Below, one piece after another: positions 5-60,145 of a stretch of 64,000 bases of DNA (positions are counted from its first letter, which is position 1; each line of letters opens with the position of its first letter). The translations under genes and the position numbers were made by a program. The notes under the pieces were generated by a model. The model worked only from the letters and a program-made list of their open reading frames with translations. It was not told the DNA's origin and did no database searches. The stretch comes from Escherichia coli (GTDB taxonomy: Bacteria > Pseudomonadota > Gammaproteobacteria > Enterobacterales > Enterobacteriaceae), in NCBI RefSeq assembly GCF_011045215.1, contig NZ_CP049201.1; one strand, given 5' to 3'.

Positions 5-37
5 AATAATGGCGTTGACATCTTCAACGCCATTATT
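5..37. terminator. Stem-loop (about 11-14 bp arms, 5-nt loop) downstream of ykgA; candidate bidirectional intrinsic terminator
   Basis: aatggcgttga (8-18) pairs with tcaacgccatt (24-34), extendable to 5-37; T-rich tract follows on the + strand. Read directly from sequence. Confidence 0.4.
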
Positions 38-91: not shown

Positions 92-982
92 CTAAACCGG
101 ACGAACGGGGATAAAAATTTCGCAAACAATGTTATTGCTATCAATTTCGACGAAATTTTCATTGTAATAAAACCGCTCAATATCACTGCCGTTGACTCTG
201 GCTAACCCCCTGGCGGGTAATTCCATCAGATAGAGGTTTCGCGCCCATTCAGGGTAGTGCTCCCACTCACCTTCATAGCGGAAAGAGGCATACAGTCCTC
301 GGTTAATTGTCCACTCTTTCGGCATCTCTGAATCGGTTTGTTTGCATACCGTACCGGCAAAAGTTTCAACCGTGAGCAAATCGACCGATTTTGTTGACGG
401 TTCAAACGTGGAGACGAAATAGATATCCGTCTTAAAATTATTCATACATCTGGCTAAATGATGACGTCGCAGTTTGACTTCTTCATCCGGTGATTTATTC
501 GACACTTCAATATCATATTTAAATGAATTGCCAAAAATAGGTGTCTCAGGAAAGTTGACTAATCTACACTCCGTCTTTTGCTGTTGACGTATTAAAAAAG
601 AAGGGAAGATATTTGCGAGATCCCAATAATCACGGTGGCGGTATACACGGGGAGAGCAGCCGAATAACTTTTTAAATTCGCGGCTGAATGACTGCTGTGA
701 ATCAAAATGCAAAGAGAGTGCAATATCAAGCATAGATTTCGCGGTGAGCCGGACAAGAATGGCGGCACGACAAAGCCTTCGTTTGCGAATGTATTCTCCC
801 AAAGGCACATGCATGAAATTTCGGAACAGAAGCTGGATGTTGCGTCTGCTGTAGCCAGATTTCTGTGCGATATCTTCGATTGAAATAGGGTGCTCAAGAT
901 TGCACTCAATCCACTCCAGGAGCTGCTGTAGAATCTTCTGCCTGATCATCACATTCTCCATTAATTCTTCGTCATATCGCAC
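92..982 (-). CDS. ykgA: AraC/XylS-family transcriptional regulator with C-terminal GyrI-like effector domain
   Basis: 296-aa ORF; AraC-type HTH signature in the N-terminal third (SIEDIAQKSGYSRRNIQLLFRNF...SQQSFSREFKKLFGCSP); sits immediately beside the rcl locus as ykgA does in E. coli. Appears full length here. Confidence 0.75.
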   Translation of the reverse strand: MRYDEELMENVMIRQKILQQLLEWIECNLEHPISIEDIAQKSGYSRRNIQLLFRNFMHVPLGEYIRKRRLCRAAILVRLTAKSMLDIALSLHFDSQQSFSREFKKLFGCSPRVYRHRDYWDLANIFPSFLIRQQQKTECRLVNFPETPIFGNSFKYDIEVSNKSPDEEVKLRRHHLARCMNNFKTDIYFVSTFEPSTKSVDLLTVETFAGTVCKQTDSEMPKEWTINRGLYASFRYEGEWEHYPEWARNLYLMELPARGLARVNGSDIERFYYNENFVEIDSNNIVCEIFIPVRPV

Positions 983-1196
983 ATTTTCGTTATGCCCTGG
1001 GCCCTAAGTGTATCAAAAACAGCAAGGCCCAAGGCAAAAGCACTGATAGCGTCTGCTTCATTGCCCCAAAAATAGAGAGGTTTCAGTCCTACATTATTAA
1101 TGAATTTTTTGCATAAGTGATATCAAAATCCACATACTAATTTGAGGTTACGTTTTAACGTAGACTCATTGTTCATGCTTAATGGAGGGACTGACA

Positions 1197-2066
1197 GTGG
1201 AATTTTCCGTATTAAGTAACAATCTGAAAATGCCGATGATGGGATTTGGTGTTTTTCAGGTTACCGATAAAAACGTGTGCAAACAGTCAGTGTTGAACGC
1301 TATCCGCACGGGTTATCGACTCATCGACACTGCAGCGGTATACGGTAATGAAGATGCTGTCGGTGAAGCCGTTCGTGAAGCCATATCCGAAGGTTTATGT
1401 ACCCGAGAAGAGTTATTTATAACGTCTAAATTGTGGGTGCAGGATATGTTGAATCAGGATACGGCAGCAGCAGGTATTGAAGCATCATTAAAAAAATCGG
1501 GACTAGAATACTTCGACCTCTATTTATTGCATCAGGCTATGCGCGATTATTTCAGTGCGTGGCGTGCACTCGAAGATGCCTATGAAGAGGGCAAATTAAA
1601 AGCGATTGGGGTTTCCAATTTCTATCCTCATGTTCTGGCGAACTTTTGTGAAACGGTAAGAGTTAAACCGATGGTCAACCAGGTCGAGTTGCATCCCTAT
1701 TTTGCCCAACCAGAGGCACTGGCAACCATGAAGTATTATAACGTGCAGCCTGAAGCATGGGCTCCGTTAGGTGGTGGACGACATAAACCCTTTGAAAATA
1801 ATCTGCTTCAGAGTATTGCAGATGCCCATCAAAAATCGATTTCTCAAGTCATTCTGCGTTGGAATATTCAACGGGGAGTGGTCGTTATTCCGAAATCGAC
1901 ACATCAACAGCGTATCGAAGAAAATTTTGCTATCTGGGATTTCTCACTGACAGAGAAAGAAATGGCACAAATTAGTTCGCTTGATTTGGGTTATGTTGGA
2001 GAGTCGGTAAAACATTTTAATCCTGAATTTGTTCGTGGTTGTCTTGCTGTAAAAATACATGATTGA
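1197..2066 (+). CDS. Aldo/keto reductase family oxidoreductase (2,5-diketo-D-gluconate reductase-like)
   Basis: ORF 1182..2066; AKR hallmarks (GYRLIDTAAVYGNE, LHQ, IPKS). Start placed at GTG 1197 (MEFSVLSNNLKMPMMGFGVF) because GGAGGG lies 7 nt upstream. Confidence 0.8.
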   Translation: MEFSVLSNNLKMPMMGFGVFQVTDKNVCKQSVLNAIRTGYRLIDTAAVYGNEDAVGEAVREAISEGLCTREELFITSKLWVQDMLNQDTAAAGIEASLKKSGLEYFDLYLLHQAMRDYFSAWRALEDAYEEGKLKAIGVSNFYPHVLANFCETVRVKPMVNQVELHPYFAQPEALATMKYYNVQPEAWAPLGGGRHKPFENNLLQSIADAHQKSISQVILRWNIQRGVVVIPKSTHQQRIEENFAIWDFSLTEKEMAQISSLDLGYVGESVKHFNPEFVRGCLAVKIHD

Positions 2067-2225
2067 TATTAATCATGTATTTTACCTGAGACGACAAGAA
2101 TCTTTTAACAGGGGAGTGATATTGATCTTCACTCTGTCATATCTCAGGTAATATGGCGTCAGGCTTCATCATCAGAAAGGGGGCCTGACGCCTGAAAAAG
2201 TGAACAACAGACAGTGTTCGGATTA

Positions 2226-2819
2226 TCAATATTCAGTTTTTAACGTTGAACTGGATTCATTACTGCGTTGTTTAAGAATTTCCCGCGCCGAATCTGCCAT
2301 TATCATGACAGCACCTGCCAGCATCAGAGTATCTTTCAATACCAGACGACCAGCACCGGATAAATAAGGGAAACCATGATGAGCGTCACCCAATGCGGGT
2401 ACCCATGCCTCCGGGGTGGTGATTAAAAATGAGAGTGTTACCAACGGTGTGGTAAATGCCATCAGCCCTCCCAATAAACCTAACCAGCGATTGACAGGAT
2501 TAGCCAAAACCAGCAGAGCAATAATCACCTCCACGACGCCAAGACCGTTGGAAAAACCATAGGTATTATTGGCCGATTGCCATGCCCTTGCTTCTGGTTT
2601 GTATTCGCCTTCGTGAGTCAGATACTGTTTATAGTCTTCCGGGTGTTCATAAAAGAACGACATTAGTGGACTGTTTGCGACGAATGGTGTAATGCTGTCT
2701 GCCTCGTAAGGGACAAACTTTAATAACCCAATCCACATAAAAACAATCGCAATACTCAGACGAATCAATGTCAGGCCAATTTTATCTCCCCGACTTAACA
2801 GGTGCAGGTATTTTTCCAT
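2226..2819 (-). CDS. rclC: Inner-membrane protein RclC (DUF417), reactive chlorine resistance
   Basis: ORF 2226..2828; start taken at internal ATG (MEKYLHLLSRGDKIGL...) with AGGA 8 nt upstream, giving 197 aa as in RclC/YkgB; hydrophobic segments. Confidence 0.9.
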   Translation of the reverse strand: MEKYLHLLSRGDKIGLTLIRLSIAIVFMWIGLLKFVPYEADSITPFVANSPLMSFFYEHPEDYKQYLTHEGEYKPEARAWQSANNTYGFSNGLGVVEVIIALLVLANPVNRWLGLLGGLMAFTTPLVTLSFLITTPEAWVPALGDAHHGFPYLSGAGRLVLKDTLMLAGAVMIMADSAREILKQRSNESSSTLKTEY

Positions 2820-2830
2820 TGTGAACATCC

Positions 2831-3067
2831 TTATTTATACAATACTGCTGTTGCGGTTGAATTATTATCAATTCGCATCGATGTGACTTTCCAGGATGAA
2901 GCATTATATTTTCTGGCTATATCAGCAATGGCATCCTCCAGAACTGTCGGTGATGCTGATACTGACGAGACGCTGATATGTTTCAGAATTATTTTATCAT
3001 CTGCATTGGTGGAAAATGCCATAACGCCAGATAATAGTGTTGCAAATAAAACGGATTTTTTAAACAT
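2831..3067 (-). CDS. rclB: Small periplasmic protein RclB (DUF1471/YkgI family) with signal peptide
   Basis: ORF 2831..3082; start at ATG 3067 (MFKKSVLFATLLSGVMAFSTNA = signal peptide), 78 aa. Confidence 0.85.
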   Translation of the reverse strand: MFKKSVLFATLLSGVMAFSTNADDKIILKHISVSSVSASPTVLEDAIADIARKYNASSWKVTSMRIDNNSTATAVLYK

Positions 3068-3175
3068 ATAAAATACCATCAATGAAGTGATTAAGAAGTT
3101 ATAGAGTAACAGGGAATTAATAAGATTCTTTTCTCTGAGACGCCAGAATATTTGTTCTGGCGTCTGATTTTGAGT

Positions 3176-4501
3176 TTATTTGACTAATGAAAATAGATCA
3201 TTGAGTGATTCGCTCATCGACGGATGAGTAAATATCTGATCGCGTAATATGCTATAAGGCAGCCCGGCATCCATCACCATTTTCACTATATTAATCATCT
3301 CGTGGGAGTCAACACACAGCAGTGATGCCCCTAATATACGTTGGGTTTTATTATCAACAATCGCTTTTAATACCCCACGGGTATCGTTCATCACTCTGGC
3401 GCGCGGAATTGCAGCTACAGGCAATGTCACCACCTGAATATCAGCACCACTCTCTCTGGCTTGTTCTTCTGTCATACCAACCCTGGATAGGGGCGGTGTC
3501 ATAAATACGGAATAAGGCACATTTTTCCGATCATCAGTACTACGTTTGCCTTCACCCAGTAACTCATCACGTACAATGCGGTAATCATCCAGTGATATGT
3601 AAGTAAATTGCAGCCCGCCGGTAACATCTCCCATCGCCCAAATATTGTCTGCGGTGGTATGTAATCGCTTGTCAACGACAATTGCCCCGCGCTCGTTTAC
3701 TGCGATACCGGCATTTTCTGGATGTAACGAAGCGGTAGCCGGTTGACGACCGGAAGCTATTAACAGTGCATCCACCGCCAGTTGGGCGTGCTCGCTATGC
3801 ACTTGCACTTGATTTTCATGGTGACTGATTCGCTCCACATGGGCATTGAGGATAATATCGACGCCCTGATCGCGTAAAATCGTCGCGATATTATCAGCAA
3901 TATCCCGTTCTTCCCGAGGCAAAAACAGTGAAGCTGCTTCTAAAATGGTTACCTTGCTGCCAAAATTAGCGAACATAGAGGCGAACTCAACGCCAATATA
4001 TCCGCCGCCCAAAATACCTAAATGCCCAGGCAATTCTTTTAGATTAAGTAATCCGGTGCTGTCATATACTCCTGGCGTGGTGGTAATTCCAGTAATTGGC
4101 GGAACCACGGTTTGTGCACCGGTATTAATAAAAATTTTCTCGCCATGAATTTCCAGATTTCCCTCAGGCCGATGAACACGCAGGCTATGATTATTGATAA
4201 ACTCCGCCTGGCCGTCGATCACGTCGATATTGGGCATATCCGCAAGATTATGAAAATTCTTATTACGTAAAAAATTAACCACTTCATTTTTACGCTGTAT
4301 GGCACGGACAAAATCTGTGTGCTGCTGTGCGTCATGAACCAATGTTTTGGTTGGGATGCAGCCGATATTAATACAGGTCCCGCCATACATTGCATTTGAT
4401 TGTTCGATGAGAGCCACTCGCCAACCTGCTTTTGCCAGCGTGACGGCTAATGTTTTTCCAGCCTTGCCAAAACCAATAATCACTGCCTGATATTTATTCA
4501 T
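3176..4501 (-). CDS. rclA: RclA, FAD-dependent pyridine nucleotide-disulfide oxidoreductase
   Basis: ORF 3176..4528; start at ATG 4501 (MNKYQAVIIGFGKAGKT, Rossmann GxGxxG), 441 aa; redox-active CxxxxC motif (GGTCINIGCIPTK). Confidence 0.95.
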   Translation of the reverse strand: MNKYQAVIIGFGKAGKTLAVTLAKAGWRVALIEQSNAMYGGTCINIGCIPTKTLVHDAQQHTDFVRAIQRKNEVVNFLRNKNFHNLADMPNIDVIDGQAEFINNHSLRVHRPEGNLEIHGEKIFINTGAQTVVPPITGITTTPGVYDSTGLLNLKELPGHLGILGGGYIGVEFASMFANFGSKVTILEAASLFLPREERDIADNIATILRDQGVDIILNAHVERISHHENQVQVHSEHAQLAVDALLIASGRQPATASLHPENAGIAVNERGAIVVDKRLHTTADNIWAMGDVTGGLQFTYISLDDYRIVRDELLGEGKRSTDDRKNVPYSVFMTPPLSRVGMTEEQARESGADIQVVTLPVAAIPRARVMNDTRGVLKAIVDNKTQRILGASLLCVDSHEMINIVKMVMDAGLPYSILRDQIFTHPSMSESLNDLFSLVK

Positions 4502-4726
4502 GATGATTTCCTGTCGAAACGCGTTCATTTGACATCATGACTATAGACGCAAAAGAGCAAATAACATTTCTTCACAACGCTTGATATTTTGTCTTATCGT
4601 CTGGTATTTTCTTTTTCTTAATCAGAATCACAAAACAAAAATCATGATTAACTATTTGATGGTATTAGATTAGTTATTTACTAAGATTGTTGGTGTTTGT
4701 AATCAAAAACCACTCAGGAGTCTGAT
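4502..4726. promoter_or_regulatory. Divergent rclA / rclR intergenic control region (AT-rich)
   Basis: 225-bp AT-rich spacer between divergently transcribed rclA and rclR; AGGAG RBS at 4715-4719 for rclR. Individual promoter elements not resolved. Confidence 0.5.
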
Positions 4727-5581
4727 ATGGATGCCCTTAGCCGTTTGTTGATGCTTAACGCTCCACAAGGAACGATCGATAAGAATTGCGTGTTAGGAAG
4801 TGACTGGCAGCTTCCACATGGTGCCGGGGAATTATCGGTTATTCGTTGGCATGCGTTAACGCAAGGAGCGGCGAAGCTGGAAATGCCGACGGGGGAGATT
4901 TTTACATTACGCCCGGGAAATGTGGTCCTGCTACCACAAAATTCAGCCCATCGCCTGAGTCATGTCGATAATGAATCAACCTGTATTGTCTGCGGCACTC
5001 TTCGGCTGCAACATTCGGCGCGTTATTTTTTAACGTCTTTGCCGGAAACGCTGTTTTTAGCACCGGTTAACCACAGCGTAGAATATAACTGGCTGAGGGA
5101 GGCGATCCCGTTTTTACAACAGGAATCCAGATTGGCAATGCCGGGAGTGGATGCACTGTGTAGCCAGATCTGCGCTACATTCTTTACCCTCGCGGTGCGT
5201 GAGTGGATTGCACAGGTTAATACTGAGAAAAACATTCTCAGTTTGCTTCTGCATCCACGTCTTGGTGCGGTAATACAGCAAATGTTGGAAATGCCAGGAC
5301 ACGCCTGGACCGTCGAATCGCTGGCCAGCATCGCCCACATGTCCCGGGCAAGTTTTGCCCAGCTTTTCCGTGATGTTTCCGGAACCACGCCGCTGGCTGT
5401 ATTAACAAAGTTGCGTCTACAAATAGCGGCCCAGATGTTTTCCCGGGAAACGCTCCCTGTTGTGGTGATCGCTGAGTCAGTAGGCTATGCCAGTGAATCA
5501 TCTTTTCACAAGGCGTTTGTCCGCGAGTTTGGTTGTACTCCGGGAGAATATCGGGAAAGGGTCAGACAGCTTGCACCCTGA
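4727..5581 (+). CDS. rclR: RclR, AraC-family redox-sensing activator of rclABC
   Basis: 284-aa ORF, AraC HTH at the C-terminus (SIAHMSRASFAQLFRDVSGTTP...ESVGYASESSFHKAFVREFGCTP); divergent from rclA. Confidence 0.95.
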   Translation: MDALSRLLMLNAPQGTIDKNCVLGSDWQLPHGAGELSVIRWHALTQGAAKLEMPTGEIFTLRPGNVVLLPQNSAHRLSHVDNESTCIVCGTLRLQHSARYFLTSLPETLFLAPVNHSVEYNWLREAIPFLQQESRLAMPGVDALCSQICATFFTLAVREWIAQVNTEKNILSLLLHPRLGAVIQQMLEMPGHAWTVESLASIAHMSRASFAQLFRDVSGTTPLAVLTKLRLQIAAQMFSRETLPVVVIAESVGYASESSFHKAFVREFGCTPGEYRERVRQLAP

Positions 5582-6107
5582 ATAAAACCGCCAGAAATCA
5601 GGGCAAAGATAATCCGCATTCCGGGAGTTGTGAGCCTTTCAACTATTTCTATTTCCAACGGTGGTTTGGGCTTTATATATTTTTTTCTGATGGACTCTAG
5701 CTCAGTTTTTAAATAAAAATGCAAACTAAATTGTTTCAATTAAATAAAATCCCGACTATTACTTGATACGTGATTATTGTCGGTGATTTTTTTGTACACC
5801 ATCAGTGTATATCTCAACAACCCCTGAATAAGTAGCTCTGAATAGGTATAAGGGATGTAGCCATTTTTAAATGGATTTCTTATGCCAAAAATGATCGTCG
5901 ATTTCCCCATAAAATGTGAGCGATGCCGAAAGAAATAAAATTAGTTATTGCATTTGACGTTTGGATGAAAGATTATCATTTGTCATACAAATGAGGGGTG
6001 GTATGTTGCTAGCCAATTAAAAAAGAACGCCATATTTATTGATGATTGATCCCCCGGTGGGGGGAAACATCGGGCATAAATGGGCATGAAGTAATGGAGT
6101 ATTAGTT

Positions 6108-8953: not shown

Positions 8954-9059
8954 GAGAGGTATGAAGTCTGGACATAAACCTGAAGAAGGCATACGAGGTT
9001 GAAAATAGCGTTAAGGACAACCTGACTTAACCCCGTTCCGTCATGGTTATGCTCCTCTT

Positions 9060-9100
9060 CTGTAAATATCCTGGCATTAGTAATGCCAGGATATTTACAG
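9060..9100. repeat. Perfect 41-bp palindrome (20-bp arms) between convergent ykgG and ykgH
   Basis: ctgtaaatatcctggcatta g taatgccaggatatttacag read directly; no U-tract on either side, so not a canonical intrinsic terminator. Confidence 0.7.
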
Positions 9101-9195
9101 TGAAAAAGACAGGCATCCATTCCTGAAAACGGGTTCCCTTCCCGGTCATTGTCACTTCAGCTTTATACAGGCACTCTCTATCAGAATGCTGTTTA

Positions 9196-9864
9196 TTACT
9201 GCCCAGAGTTTTGTTGGTATTCATCTACCATTTTTTTGACAAGGCAAAACATTACAGAAATTACAATGCTTATAAAAAATCCCAGAGCTAGGTAAATGGC
9301 AGCAGGGTATTTATTTTTTATTTCTGGTGAGCTTATAGTTACACAGCCATCACCGTTTGGATACAATGACCAGTTCCTGGTCAGGTATATCATTTTTGTA
9401 TAAAGCTCACTGTTAATTGCTGAAGGCGTTTGTATCTCATCGAGAACTTGCCTGCCATTATGGTATTCTGACGCATACCATTTGATAATAGACGCCTGCA
9501 CGTGAGATATTTCCGCTTCAGCAGTTGGTAAATCTCTCTTATCTCCTGACCATTCCAGCTTTATTTCTCTGTTCTTGACATCTGGGCTGGTGTGAAAAAA
9601 TGTAGTAATTCGCTGAATAACATCTTCAGTCATTGTGGTCTGACAGGCAAAGTTATTATTGCTATCACAGTTAACAAGTATACCTGGCGTTGTCTGGTTT
9701 ATTTTTAGGCTGTAAATCACTTTTATATTGTCTTTATTGATATACAGAAACAACAGCACCATAGCCATACATATAGCCATAATAAAAAGGATAACACGAA
9801 TCTTTTTCTTCAGATAAAATAAAATCTCAATCAGATCGATATCCTGTTTGATTTGTTCACTCAT
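9196..9864 (-). CDS. ykgH: Inner-membrane protein YkgH (one N-terminal and one C-terminal hydrophobic segment)
   Basis: 222-aa AT-rich ORF; hydrophobic stretches at residues ~22-42 and ~190-210. Confidence 0.85.
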   Translation of the reverse strand: MSEQIKQDIDLIEILFYLKKKIRVILFIMAICMAMVLLFLYINKDNIKVIYSLKINQTTPGILVNCDSNNNFACQTTMTEDVIQRITTFFHTSPDVKNREIKLEWSGDKRDLPTAEAEISHVQASIIKWYASEYHNGRQVLDEIQTPSAINSELYTKMIYLTRNWSLYPNGDGCVTISSPEIKNKYPAAIYLALGFFISIVISVMFCLVKKMVDEYQQNSGQ

Positions 9865-10057
9865 AATATATCCAGAAAATAAAATCTGCCGCAGATAAAT
9901 GAATTAATAGTCTGTATCAGGAATGTTCGGGTTAAATATCAGCAAAAAGCCAGCATCATGAATACTGGATATGAAGCATGAGAGTTACCTCAGTGTTTAT
10001 ATAAGGATTCGGCCCCCCTCTCTGGAACGGTAACTCTCAATCTGATCGGTTCCTGCG

Positions 10058-11746
10058 TTAGTTCACATCACGACTCATTTTTTTCGCTCTCACCGGCATC
10101 CCATTTGCCACAAAATATCCCGCCGTGCTCCTCGGCAACGCTTCCTGTCCACGAATCATGTCCGCTATTTTCTCGCCAATCATAATTGTCGTGGCGTTCA
10201 AATTCCCGGTGATAATCTGCGGCATAATTGACGCATCCACCACGCGCAGGCCTTCCAGCCCATGCACGCGGCCTTCGCCGTCAACCACGGACATCTCGTC
10301 GTAGCCCATTTTGCAGGTACCGCACGGATGGAAGGCGGTTTCGGCGTGATTACGCACGAACTCATCGAGCTGCTCATCCGTCTGACATTCCGTGCCGGGG
10401 CTGATTTCGCGGCCACGATACTGATCCAGCGCTGGTTGATGCATGATCTCGCGGGTGATGCGAATTGCGTCGCGGAACTCCTGCCAGTCCTGCTCGTGCG
10501 ACATGTAGTTAAACAGAATCGCCGGATGCTGGTGCGGGTCGCGGGATTTAATCCGCACATGCCCACGGCTTGGCGAGCGCATCGATCCGACGTGGCACTG
10601 GAAGCCGTGCTCTTTCACTGCATTCGAGCCGTTATAGTTAATCGCTACTGGCAGGAAATGGTACTGAATATTCGGCCACGCAAATTCCTCTCGGCTGCGA
10701 ATAAATCCGCCTGCTTCAAAGTGGTTGCTGGCACCAACGCCGGTGCCGCCAAACAGCCACTCCGCACCGATTTTCGGCTGATTCCACCACTGCAGGGCAG
10801 GGTAGAGGGAAACCGGTTCTTTGCACTCATATTGCAGATACATCTCCAGGTGATCCTGAAGATTTTCGCCGACGCCGGGTAAATCATGCACCAGCGGAAT
10901 ATCAAACTCCGCCAGCAGTTCAGCGCTACCCACGCCGGAACGTTGCAGGATCTGCGGAGAGGCGATCGCACCTGCACATAACAGCACCTCTTTATTCGCT
11001 GTCGCGCGGGTTGGAATGGTGCTGTCGCCTTCCTGCCACTCGACGCCCACCGCGCGTTTGCCGTCAAAAATGATGTGATCGGTCATAGCGTGAGTACGAA
11101 TGGTCAGGTTAGGGCGCGATTTGGCCTGATCGAGATAACCGCGCGCGGTACTGGCGCGACGGCCCTGCGGCGTGACGGTGCGATCCATCGGGCCAAAACC
11201 TTCCTGCTGATAGCCGTTGAGATCGTCCGTGCGCGGGTAGCCTGCCTGCACGCCCGCTTCAATCATCGCTTCAAACAGCGGATTGACGCCGGGTTTGGAG
11301 GTGGTGACGCTCACCGGGCCATCACCGCCGTGATAGTCGTTATCACCAATATCGCGCGTCTCGGCCTTGCGATAGTAGGGCAGGCAATCGAGATAGCTCC
11401 AGTTCTCCAGGCCGGGTTCTTTCGCCCAGTTGTCGAGATCCAGCGCGTTGCCACGGATGTAGCACATGCCGTTGATCAGCGACGATCCACCCAGGCCTTT
11501 ACCGCGTCCGCACTCCATGCGGCGGTTATTCATAAACGGTTCAGGTTCCGTTTCATAGGCCCAGTTGTAGCGTTTACCCTGTAGCGGGAATGCCAGGGCA
11601 GCGGGCATCTGGGTGCGGAAGTCAAAGCGATAGTCCGGGCCGCCCGCTTCAAGCAGCAGCACGGAGGTATTCGGATCTTCAGTCAGACGGGTAGCGAGAA
11701 CGTTGCCGGCTGAGCCGGCACCAATAATGATGTAGTCAAATTGCAA
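10058..11746 (-). CDS. betA: Choline dehydrogenase (GMC oxidoreductase, FAD)
   Basis: ORF 10058..11791; N-terminal FAD fold [18 protein letters not shown]. The position matching the canonical N-terminus (xQFDYIIIG) is TTG here, 5 nt after AGGAGG. C-terminus ...[10 protein letters not shown]. Confidence 0.9.
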
Positions 11747-24254: not shown

Positions 24255-24715
24255 ATGCCGGATGCGGCGTGAACGCCTTATCCGGCCTACAAGTGGCGCA
24301 AGAATTTGTAGGCCTGATAAGCGTAGCGCATCAGGCATTTGTCACCATTGCCTGATGCGGCGTGAACGCCTTATCCGGCCTACGAGTGGCGCGAGAATTT
24401 GTAGGCCTGATAAGCGTAGCGCATCAGGCATTTGTCACCATTGCCGGATGCGGCGTGAACGCCTTATCCGGCCTACGAGTGGCACGAGAATTTGTAGGCC
24501 TGATAAGCGTAGCGCATCAGGCATTTGTCACCATTGCCGGATGCGGCGTGAACGCCTTATCCGGCCTACGAGTGGCACGAGAATTTGTAGGCCTGATAAG
24601 CGTAGCGCATCAGGCATTTGTCACCATTGCCGGATGCGGCGTGAACGCCTTATCCGGCCTACGAGTGGCACGAGAATTTGTAGGCCTGATAAGCGTAGCG
24701 CATCAGGCAATTTGG
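24255..24715. repeat. REP/BIME array, about 5 tandem units of 93-94 bp
   Basis: Unit gccggatgcggcgtgaacgccttatccggcctacgagtggcgcgagaatttgtaggcctgataagcgtagcgcatcaggcatttgtcaccatt recurs starting near 24258, 24351, 24444, 24538 and 24631. Confidence 0.9.
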
Positions 24716-38911: not shown

Positions 38912-39838
38912 TGTCGGATGCGTCGCGTGGCGCATCCGACAGTTGTGCGCAGATGCCTGATGCGACGCTGGCGCGTCTTATCATGCCTACAGGCCTGAAC
39001 CGTAGGTCGGATAAGGCGCTCGCACCGCATCCGACACCGTGCTCAGTGCCTGATGCGACGCAGGCGCGTCTTATCATACCTACAGGCCTGAACCGTAGGT
39101 CGGATAAGGCGCTCGCGGCGCATCCGACACCATGCGCAGATGCCTGATGCGACGCTGATGCGTCTTATCATGCCTACAGGCCTGAACCGTAGGTCGGATA
39201 AGGCGCTCGCGCCGCATCCGACACCATGCGCAGATGCCTGATGCGACGCTGATGCGTCTTATCATGCCTACAGGCCTGAACCGTAGGTCGGATAAGGCGC
39301 TCGCGCCGCATCCGACACCATGCGCCGATGCCTGATGCGACGCAGGCGCGTCTTATCATGCCTACAGGCCTGAACCGTAGGTCGGATAAGGCGCTCGCAC
39401 CGCATCCGACACCGTGCTCAGTGCCTGATGCGACGCTGATGCGTCTTATCATGCCTACAGGCCTGAACCGTAGGTCGGATAAGGCGCTCGCGCCGCATCC
39501 GACACCATGCGCAGATGCCTGATGCGACGCTGATGCGTCTTATCATGCCTACAGGCCTGAACCGTAGGTCGGATAAGGCGCTCGCGCCGCATCCGACACC
39601 ATGCGCCGATGCCTGATGCGACGCTGGCGCGTCTTATCATGCCTACAGGCCTGAACCGTAGGTCGGATAAGGCGCTCGCGCCGCATCCGACACCGTGCGC
39701 AGATGCCTGATACGACGCAGGCGCGTCTTATCATGCCTACAGGCCTGAACCGTAGGTCGGATAAGGCGCTCGCGCCGCATCCGACACCATGCGCCGATGC
39801 CTGATGCGACGCTTACCGCGTCTTATCATGCCTACCCA
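38912..39838. repeat. Large REP/BIME array: about 10 tandem units of 93-94 bp between prpE and codB
   Basis: Unit gcctgatgcgacgctg[g/a][c/t]gcgtcttatcatgcctacaggcctgaaccgtaggtcggataaggcgctcgcgccgcatccgacacc[a/g]tgcgcagat recurs starting at 38955, 39048, 39142, 39236, 39330, 39423, 39517, 39611, 39705, 39799; each unit holds two opposed REP palindromes. Confidence 0.9.

Positions 39839-59784: not shown

Positions 59785-60145
<361 letters not shown>

Follow-up and report, generated by a model that had tools for sequence, protein, structure and literature searches.

The ykgA gene and the adjacent aldo/keto reductase (AKR) gene are both intact in this E. coli strain, and they are very probably the ordinary ancestral alleles of two chromosomal Escherichia genes lying between fdeC and the rcl operon, whereas K-12 is the derived state at this locus. 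The window, meaning the whole stretch of 64,000 nucleotides that was analysed, had been described in an earlier note as carrying full-length copies of both genes, with the K-12 equivalents given as disrupted. Both statements held: the positions were confirmed, the Pfam matches are strong, the catalytic tetrad of the AKR is present, and the K-12 MG1655 counterparts are the pseudogenes b0300 and b4631, with IS3 in ykgA and two deletions in the AKR gene, so that neither K-12 copy is intact. About half of sequenced E. coli are in the ancestral intact state, and the intact pair is therefore real but ordinary. Nothing in the sequence hints at a new kind of system, and the finding itself matters little.

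The longest open reading frame of ykgA is 92..982 on the minus strand and encodes 296 aa from a GTG. There are in-frame starts upstream of 949, and the likely start is the ATG at 949, which follows GGAG at a spacing of 6 nt and agrees with the PGAP/RefSeq models (858 nt) in ETEC6335, PapM-32-1, Sakai, CFT073 and E2348/69. The AKR frame reaches at most 1182..2066 on the plus strand (294 aa), and its likely start is the GTG at 1197, which has GGAGGG before it at a spacing of 7 nt, again in agreement with the models in the same five strains. The orthologues in other genera have the same lengths, 285 aa for ykgA and 289 aa for the AKR. The features of the locus are collected in Table 1.

Table 1. 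Features of the ykgA-AKR locus, in window coordinates
Feature	Position	Strand	Description	Basis
Hairpin between fdeC end and ykgA end	5..37		14-bp stem; fold -19 kcal/mol, z = -5.9 (plus)	Terminator scan
ykgA CDS	92..949	minus	285 aa; Rob-like AraC/XylS regulator	ORF list, Pfam, PGAP models
YkgA GyrI-like effector-binding domain	101..571	minus	aa 127-283	Pfam, residues 138-294 of the 296-aa ORF
YkgA double helix-turn-helix DNA-binding domain	632..871	minus	aa 27-106	Pfam HTH_18, residues 38-117 of the 296-aa ORF
Divergent ykgA/AKR control region	950..1196		247 bp; two direct copies of TAAGTG(N0-1)TATCAAAA at 1005-1018 and 1114-1128	
AKR CDS, intact counterpart of K-12 pseudogene ykgQ	1197..2066	plus	289 aa, GTG start	ORF list, Pfam, tetrad
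AKR segment 1 deleted in K-12-type genomes	1213..1797	plus	585 nt; AATCTG direct repeat at bounds	BLAST against BW25113, NT1F25; junction sequences
AKR segment 2 deleted in K-12-type genomes	1847..1937	plus	91 nt, frame shift; 9-nt GATTTCTCA direct repeat at bounds	
A/T-rich perfect hairpin across AKR stop codon	2049..2086	plus	-19 kcal/mol, z = -5.8	Self-reverse-complement BLAST match 2052-2083

K-12 is a degraded reference here, since eaeH/fdeC, ykgA and ykgQ are all pseudogenes in it. In the MG1655 RefSeq record these are eaeH (b0297), ykgA (b0300) and ykgQ (b4631), with IS3A between eaeH and ykgA, and BW25113 was also examined. BLAST against BW25113 showed that the K-12 homology to ykgA ends at window position 289, left of which the sequence is replaced by IS3; the last ~65 codons of ykgA, within the GyrI-like domain, are thereby taken away. 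A single IS3-associated deletion has removed the 3' part of fdeC/eaeH together with the end of ykgA in K-12, and IS3 at the eaeH/ykgA junction has also been described previously (PMC11148124). The two AKR deletions together cost K-12 676 of the 870 nt of the gene. They lie between short direct repeats and are common to many genomes, including K-12, W3110, C600 and NT1F25.

The intact state is frequent and old. The full-length AKR region was found in 2933 of 5426 complete E. coli genomes, including CFT073, E2348/69, O157 Sakai and ST131, where the threshold of at least 80% BLAST coverage means that not every one of these copies need be an intact ORF; ykgA reached the same coverage in 4633 of the 5426. 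About half of E. coli keep these genes, UPEC, EPEC and EHEC reference strains among them, and both genes are intact in the reference strains of phylogroups B2 and E. Losses are also common: about 39% of genomes carry the AKR deletions, ykgA is still full-length in at least 1700 E. coli genomes that have lost the AKR, and in at least one genome IS2 lies inside ykgA. The order fdeC-ykgA-AKR is intact in a non-coli Escherichia (locus L011, with ykgEFG at 91% nucleotide identity). For ykgA, dN/dS was 0.146 in the comparison with the non-coli Escherichia, 0.129 with Salmonella and 0.230 with the E. coli allele of 283 aa, and that of the AKR gene was 0.055 and 0.056; judged by these ratios, both genes are under purifying selection. 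The G+C content is low over the whole stretch of these genes, 43-45% as compared to 52% for the window. The suggestion of the earlier note that this strain may retain a functional pair is partly supported: both genes look functional by their dN/dS and by their transcription in CFT073, but their retention is nothing unusual, and the oddity is K-12.

YkgA classes by sequence as a Rob-type protein but not as an orthologue of Rob. It belongs to the AraC/XylS family (Pfam HTH_18, 6.3e-19, 68.5 bits against a cut-off of 33.6; HTH_AraC, 1.9e-14), and the Rob-type architecture is given by a C-terminal GyrI-like domain matched at 3.9e-12 over profile positions 2-155 of 155. Like Rob, it combines an N-terminal double HTH with this C-terminal domain, and it aligns with Rob end to end, residues 5-283 against 5-288, at E = 4e-39 (structures 7vwy and 1d5y). 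The Q-Q-x-x-x-R residues of Rob helix 6 are also found in YkgA. However, it falls below the RobA equivalog cut-offs, with 194.8 bits against 380 for NCBIfam NF012228 and 172.7 against 426 for PRK15121, and its distribution is narrow and its evolution fast, with identity of 86% in another Escherichia and 67% in Salmonella. The RclR model gave only 33.9 bits against a cut-off of 400. In the Rob alignment two residues of helix 3 that contact the marbox are replaced, W36 by R and R40 by L, and since these base-contacting residues differ from both Rob and MarA, the DNA target of YkgA is probably not the marbox. No marbox with two or fewer mismatches was found in the control region of ykgA (950-1196), and the 19 matches across the window, against 16.9 expected, are at chance level. 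With its helix-3 contacts changed and its own control region free of marboxes, YkgA does not look like an activator of the mar/sox/rob regulon. It was described in PMC2064960 as the fourth homologue of SoxS, MarA and Rob, with function and targets given there as unidentified.

The AKR is a member of the aldo/keto reductase superfamily (Pfam Aldo_ket_red, 5.5e-43; alignment with 1vp5), and the catalytic tetrad D44/Y49/K78/H112 lies within the motifs LIDTAA, AAVYGNE, ITSKLW and LLHQ. It stays below the NCBIfam equivalog cut-offs of DkgA (234.6 against 425) and DkgB (164.4 against 327). Its best solved relatives are Thermotoga maritima TM1009 (1vp5, 7.6e-85) and the Bacillus subtilis proteins YtbE (3b3d, 6.5e-74) and YvgN (3d3f, 5e-69), with 4mhb also among them. 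TM1009, YtbE and YvgN are small AKRs of the 2,5-diketogluconate-reductase type, with the same size of about 280-290 aa and the tetrad conserved, whereas the E. coli protein and its orthologues make up a closely conserved group of their own, with 81-86% identity over the range from E. coli to Vibrio. Because the protein is 82% identical to Vibrio proteins, a recent transfer was considered; it was rejected, as nucleotide identity is only 74-80% and synonymous sites are saturated, which indicates strong constraint at the protein level and not transfer.

If YkgA works by analogy with Rob, the binding of a small molecule to the GyrI-like domain would free the MarA/SoxS-type double HTH or activate it, and the double HTH would then recruit RNA polymerase. 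The AKR, being of the DkgA/YvgN/YtbE type, would by homology most likely reduce reactive aldehydes or ketones with NAD(P)H. The earlier note had treated the two genes as a regulator-reductase pair, and it is possible, by analogy, that YkgA regulates the divergent AKR gene as YqhC does with yqhD-dkgA. YqhC is an AraC-type activator of E. coli divergent from the aldehyde reductase genes yqhD-dkgA. As both loci place an AraC-family regulator divergent from a DkgA-like AKR, it is the natural model if ykgA and the AKR gene are a pair; however, YqhC, unlike YkgA, is not known to have a GyrI-like domain, and the AKR here is not DkgA. The one basis for the pairing is the divergent adjacency, which is limited to Escherichia. 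Orthologues of the AKR with 81-86% identity occur in four other genera (Klebsiella, Enterobacter, Salmonella salamae and Vibrio), where their surroundings are unrelated and include neither ykgA nor rcl, and the E. coli genomes that keep ykgA but not the AKR add to this, so that comparative genomics argues against an obligatory link.

The control region itself offers a lead. The TAAGTG(N0-1)TATCAAAA pattern, drawn up after the data were seen, has only these two matches within the 64 kb, and both boxes are invariant in the non-coli Escherichia, CFT073, E2348/69 and Sakai. As a YkgA operator the boxes were kept only as a lead, because the block around the second box (TTATTAATGAAtTTTTTGCATAAGTnAtATCA) is retained upstream of the AKR orthologues in S. 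salamae and Klebsiella, where ykgA is not adjacent; this block thus belongs, at least in part, to the promoter region of the AKR itself. The promoter scan found no consensus sigma-70 promoter in 950-1196, total matches being at chance level.

The partner of YkgA could instead be the inverse-autotransporter adhesin FdeC (EaeH), for example in control of the adhesin by a small molecule derived from the host, a reading we regard as unlikely. Of the neighbourhoods compared, only the convergent fdeC-ykgA arrangement is kept from one genus to another: the Salmonella ykgA orthologues adjoin fdeC, without AKR and without rcl, and at one S. enterica locus (L010) an FdeC orthologue (70% identity over 1414 aa) lies beside the YkgA orthologue (67%), a second locus (L013) being alike. 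The IS3-associated event in K-12 struck both genes at once, ykgA remains full-length and the allele still constrained in the E. coli that lost the AKR, and in published RNA-seq of HOCl-treated UPEC CFT073, a strain with both ykgA and the AKR gene intact, fdeC (c0415) moved together with ykgA, with a log2FC of 1.41. But a tail-to-tail layout is unusual for a regulator and its target, and the region upstream of fdeC showed no TAAGTG..TATCAAAA boxes in Sakai, L011 or L010. Among the listed papers naming fdeC together with AraC, none is about YkgA to judge by title and abstract, and fdeC is outside the window.

A further reading, that ykgA and the AKR gene are an accessory arm of the RclR reactive-chlorine response which K-12 has lost, is improbable. 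In E. coli the pair directly adjoins rclC, and RclR with rclABC likewise combines a regulator of AraC type with divergent oxidoreductase genes; the low G+C content of the whole stretch would also fit. The earlier note had proposed expression under HOCl as a check, and both genes did rise in CFT073: ykgA (baseMean 842) by a log2FC of 2.04 (padj 1e-8), or 4.1-fold, and the AKR gene (c0417, baseMean 3318) by 1.33 (padj 3e-8), or 2.5-fold. This induction is small beside that of rclC, rclB, rclA and rclR (log2FC of 7.40, 6.72, 6.12 and 3.19; 70-170-fold for rclABC, which is 20- to 70-fold stronger), it falls within a response in which 757 genes go up, and the AKR stays under the authors' cut-off of 1.5. 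The rclCBA-rclR block (window 2061-5671) is precisely missing from L011, which retains ykgA and the AKR, so rcl is inherited as a separate block, and neither the AKR orthologues of the other genera nor the Salmonella ykgA orthologues lie beside rcl. The ykgA/AKR and rclA-rclR control regions have no k-mer of at least 10 nt in common, and a shared control motif was not found. Furthermore, the RclR response of K-12 works without the pair, and EPEC E2348/69, in which the pair is intact, was reported to be no more tolerant of HOCl than MG1655. The functional reading as a whole, as a regulator-reductase pair tied to rcl, is weakly supported. Our literature searches found nothing relevant on ECs0337, ECs0338, Z0376 or Z0377 and nothing joining rclR with an aldo-keto reductase, and ykgQ appeared only in an AtoC site-prediction paper.

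With little confidence, YkgA may be pictured as a ligand-gated Rob-like activator of non-marbox specificity driving the AKR and possibly fdeC, in an oxidant- or electrophile-inducible module beside rcl that was wholly lost in K-12. The joint modest HOCl rise of fdeC, ykgA and the AKR gene in CFT073 and the paired invariant TAAGTG(N)TATCAAAA boxes are compatible with it. If it were true, one branch of the way in which E. coli responds to oxidants or aldehydes from the host would have escaped work based on K-12, which is wholly without such a module. That the two genes are silent relics, intact only by chance and heading for decay as in K-12, is hardly credible: frequent independent loss, by AKR deletion or by IS3 or IS2 insertion in ykgA, and a low G+C content suggestive of a silenced region speak for it, but dN/dS holds at 0.05-0.23 over divergences up to genus level, the AKR protein is 81-86% identical across genera with its synonymous sites saturated, and both genes are clearly transcribed in CFT073.

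The Rfam search returned nothing in 1-2400, and elsewhere in the window only REP-derived naRNA4 elements. The fdeC gene ends just left of the window. The stem at 5..37 forms on the minus strand as well, where it follows the stop codon of ykgA, and this hairpin is probably a bidirectional terminator; the hairpin at 2049..2086 probably serves as the terminator of the AKR gene.

At its left end the window holds a typical stretch of E. coli chromosome, with the gene order fdeC (just outside the window), ykgA, AKR, rclC-rclB-rclA, rclR, ykgEFG, ykgH, betABIT, pdeL and yah genes, and the closest complete genome, PapM-32-1, is 99.2% identical across 25 kb. Based on the ORF list and strong domain matches, ykgA and the divergent aldo/keto reductase gene (AKR, counterpart of the K-12 pseudogene ykgQ) are both intact, as the earlier note had read them, and the chosen starts agree with the RefSeq models in five genomes and with orthologue lengths in other genera.

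Coordinates (window) of the two genes and of the deletions in K-12 AKR
Feature	Position	Strand	Length	Detail
ykgA, maximal ORF	92..982	minus	296 aa	
ykgA, best start	ATG at 949	minus	285 aa	GGAG + 6 nt spacing
AKR, maximal ORF	1182..2066	plus		ORF list
AKR, best start	GTG at 1197	plus	289 aa	GGAGGG + 7 nt spacing
K-12 AKR deletion 1	1213-1797		585 nt	AATCTG repeats at both ends
K-12 AKR deletion 2	1847-1937		91 nt	GATTTCTCA repeats at both ends

The earlier note had both genes annotated as disrupted in K-12, which is correct according to the RefSeq pseudogene annotation and to three lesions in the alignment of the window with K-12. In MG1655, eaeH (b0297), ykgA (b0300) and ykgQ (b4631) are annotated as pseudogenes with IS3A lying between eaeH and ykgA, and the three genes are the same in BW25113. 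K-12 is homologous to ykgA only from window position 289 onward; some 220 codons survive, and the GyrI-like domain has lost 65 of its 157 residues. The two deletions in AKR remove 676 of 870 nt in total. Strain NT1F25 carries both AKR deletions and yet has a full-length ykgA of 283 aa, so the loss of AKR is older and more widespread than the IS3 event of K-12. A binding site for AtoC has been reported between ykgA and ykgQ of K-12, ACTATACGGAAAATTCCACT (PMC3118216); its reverse complement is found in K-12 (L001:4904-4923) across the join left by the AKR deletion (window 1212|1798), and its final bases differ in intact strains (window 1196-1215).

Among 5426 complete E. coli genomes, the whole 1-2400 region was present in 2933, as was the whole AKR, while about 2100 carried the AKR remnant alone; ykgA at a coverage of 80% or above was found in 4633. 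CFT073, E2348/69 and O157:H7 Sakai have intact copies of the two genes, and ST131 has their full-length DNA. Since fdeC-ykgA-AKR is also intact in a non-coli Escherichia (91% nucleotide identity in ykgEFG), sequence comparison indicates that the intact state is ancestral and that of K-12 derived. This intact state is common and already annotated. Judged from dN/dS, ykgA (0.13-0.23) and AKR (about 0.055) are both under purifying selection (ykgE and ykgF, 0.02 for comparison). NT1F25 is 91.6% identical to the window over 1-1212 and 98.7% over 1938-3200. E. coli ykgA occurs as two deep haplotypes, with the ~94% allele (283 aa) in about 1400 genomes, which points to ancient recombination near fdeC and ykgA.

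YkgA matches the Pfam HTH_18, HTH_AraC and GyrI-like families and shares the domain layout of Rob, to whose structures it aligns from end to end (E = 4e-39), and it falls below the NCBIfam equivalog cut-off for RobA. The two proteins differ in helix 3, where YkgA has R and L in place of W36 and R40 of Rob; because of these residues, and because no marbox was found in the ykgA control region, the DNA specificity of YkgA is probably different. The AKR protein (Pfam Aldo_ket_red, 5.5e-43) retains the tetrad D44/Y49/K78/H112, has T. maritima 1vp5 and B. subtilis YtbE and YvgN as its closest solved structures, and is below the equivalog cut-offs for DkgA and DkgB. YkgA may act like Rob, with a ligand on its GyrI-like domain, and AKR would use NAD(P)H to reduce reactive carbonyls, as YvgN, YtbE and DkgA do. 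YqhC and yqhD-dkgA serve as the model for a possible link in which YkgA regulates the divergent AKR. Two direct copies of TAAGTG(N0-1)TATCAAAA at 1005-1018 and 1114-1128, the sole matches in 64 kb, are invariant in the non-coli Escherichia, although 146 bp are inserted between them in that genome. They are a candidate operator, and only a lead, because S. salamae and Klebsiella, which have no ykgA adjacent to AKR, also keep the block around the second box upstream of their AKR orthologues. The function and targets of YkgA were described as unidentified in a 2007 paper (PMC2064960), and nothing changing this statement was found in the later literature. The K-12 ykgA remnant is transcribed, with a slight rise after acid shock, and in an AIEC strain ykgA is among the pleiotropic stress response genes accompanying growth on ethanolamine.

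The proposal that the pair belongs to the rcl reactive chlorine response is weak. The non-coli Escherichia carrying both genes lacks precisely the rclCBA-rclR block (window 2061-5671), with about 50 bp between its AKR stop and sequence upstream of ykgE (L011:4690-4743). No k-mer of at least 10 nt is common to the ykgA-AKR and rclA-rclR control regions. In published RNA-seq of CFT073 after 15 min with 2.25 mM HOCl (Table S1, Sultana et al. 2022, PMC9600549), ykgA (c0416) and AKR (c0417) did rise, with log2 fold changes of 2.04 and 1.33, but modestly as compared to rclC (7.40), rclB (6.72) and rclA (6.12); rclR and fdeC (c0415) rose by 3.19 and 1.41. As 757 genes were up-regulated at the authors' cut-off (log2FC > 1.5), the rise of ykgA is a modest part of a very wide response, and AKR lies under the cut-off. 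The HOCl sensitivity of MG1655 is reported as no different from that of EPEC O127:H6 (PMC9600549), a strain with the intact pair; this counts against a major protective role, weakly, given the many other differences between these strains.

Compared across genera, the histories of ykgA and AKR are very different. AKR is 81-86% identical in Klebsiella, Enterobacter, Kluyvera, S. enterica subsp. salamae and Vibrio. At the loci in Klebsiella, Enterobacter, S. salamae and Vibrio it has no adjacent ykgA or rcl gene, and its neighbours are unrelated: a LysR-hydrolase-MFS cluster (Klebsiella), a LysR-SDR cluster (Enterobacter), an ATP synthase operon (Vibrio) or SDR and TetR genes (S. salamae). Its upstream block is kept with it in two of these, S. 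salamae and Klebsiella. The YkgA protein has a narrow distribution and evolves rapidly (86% identity in another Escherichia, 64-67% in Salmonella-like genomes), and the one neighbour of its gene that is conserved across genera is fdeC, a convergent gene for an inverse autotransporter. At the S. enterica locus L010, FdeC shows 70% full-length identity and YkgA 67%, with no AKR or rcl gene nearby. Convergent fdeC-ykgA loci were seen in S. enterica (L010:6001-11233, L013:6001-9814) and the non-coli Escherichia (L011:6001-11229); in our strain fdeC falls immediately outside the window, to the left of position 1. Two more AKR genes (about 283 and 329 aa) lie upstream of fdeC, outside the window, in PapM-32-1 (L014:1-1152), CFT073 (L023:13279-15146), E2348/69 (L025:6594-8461) and the non-coli Escherichia, so the ancestral locus had three AKR genes around fdeC. 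The K-12 annotation has no extra AKR genes between ykgR and eaeH, the pseudogene ykgP alone being listed.

Within 92-5581, G+C content is 43.6% in ykgA, 42.6% in AKR and 44.7% in the rcl genes, markedly lower than in ykgEFG (50.8%) and than the window mean of 51.9%. In the window and PapM-32-1, ykgH is followed directly by betA (about 8960-10100); hyxB-hyxA-hyxR-ipbA lies between them in CFT073 and many other genomes, with remnants in Sakai. REP-derived naRNA4 (RF02564) arrays, ordinary in E. coli intergenic regions, are located at 24311-24659, 39005-39832 and 59847-60126.
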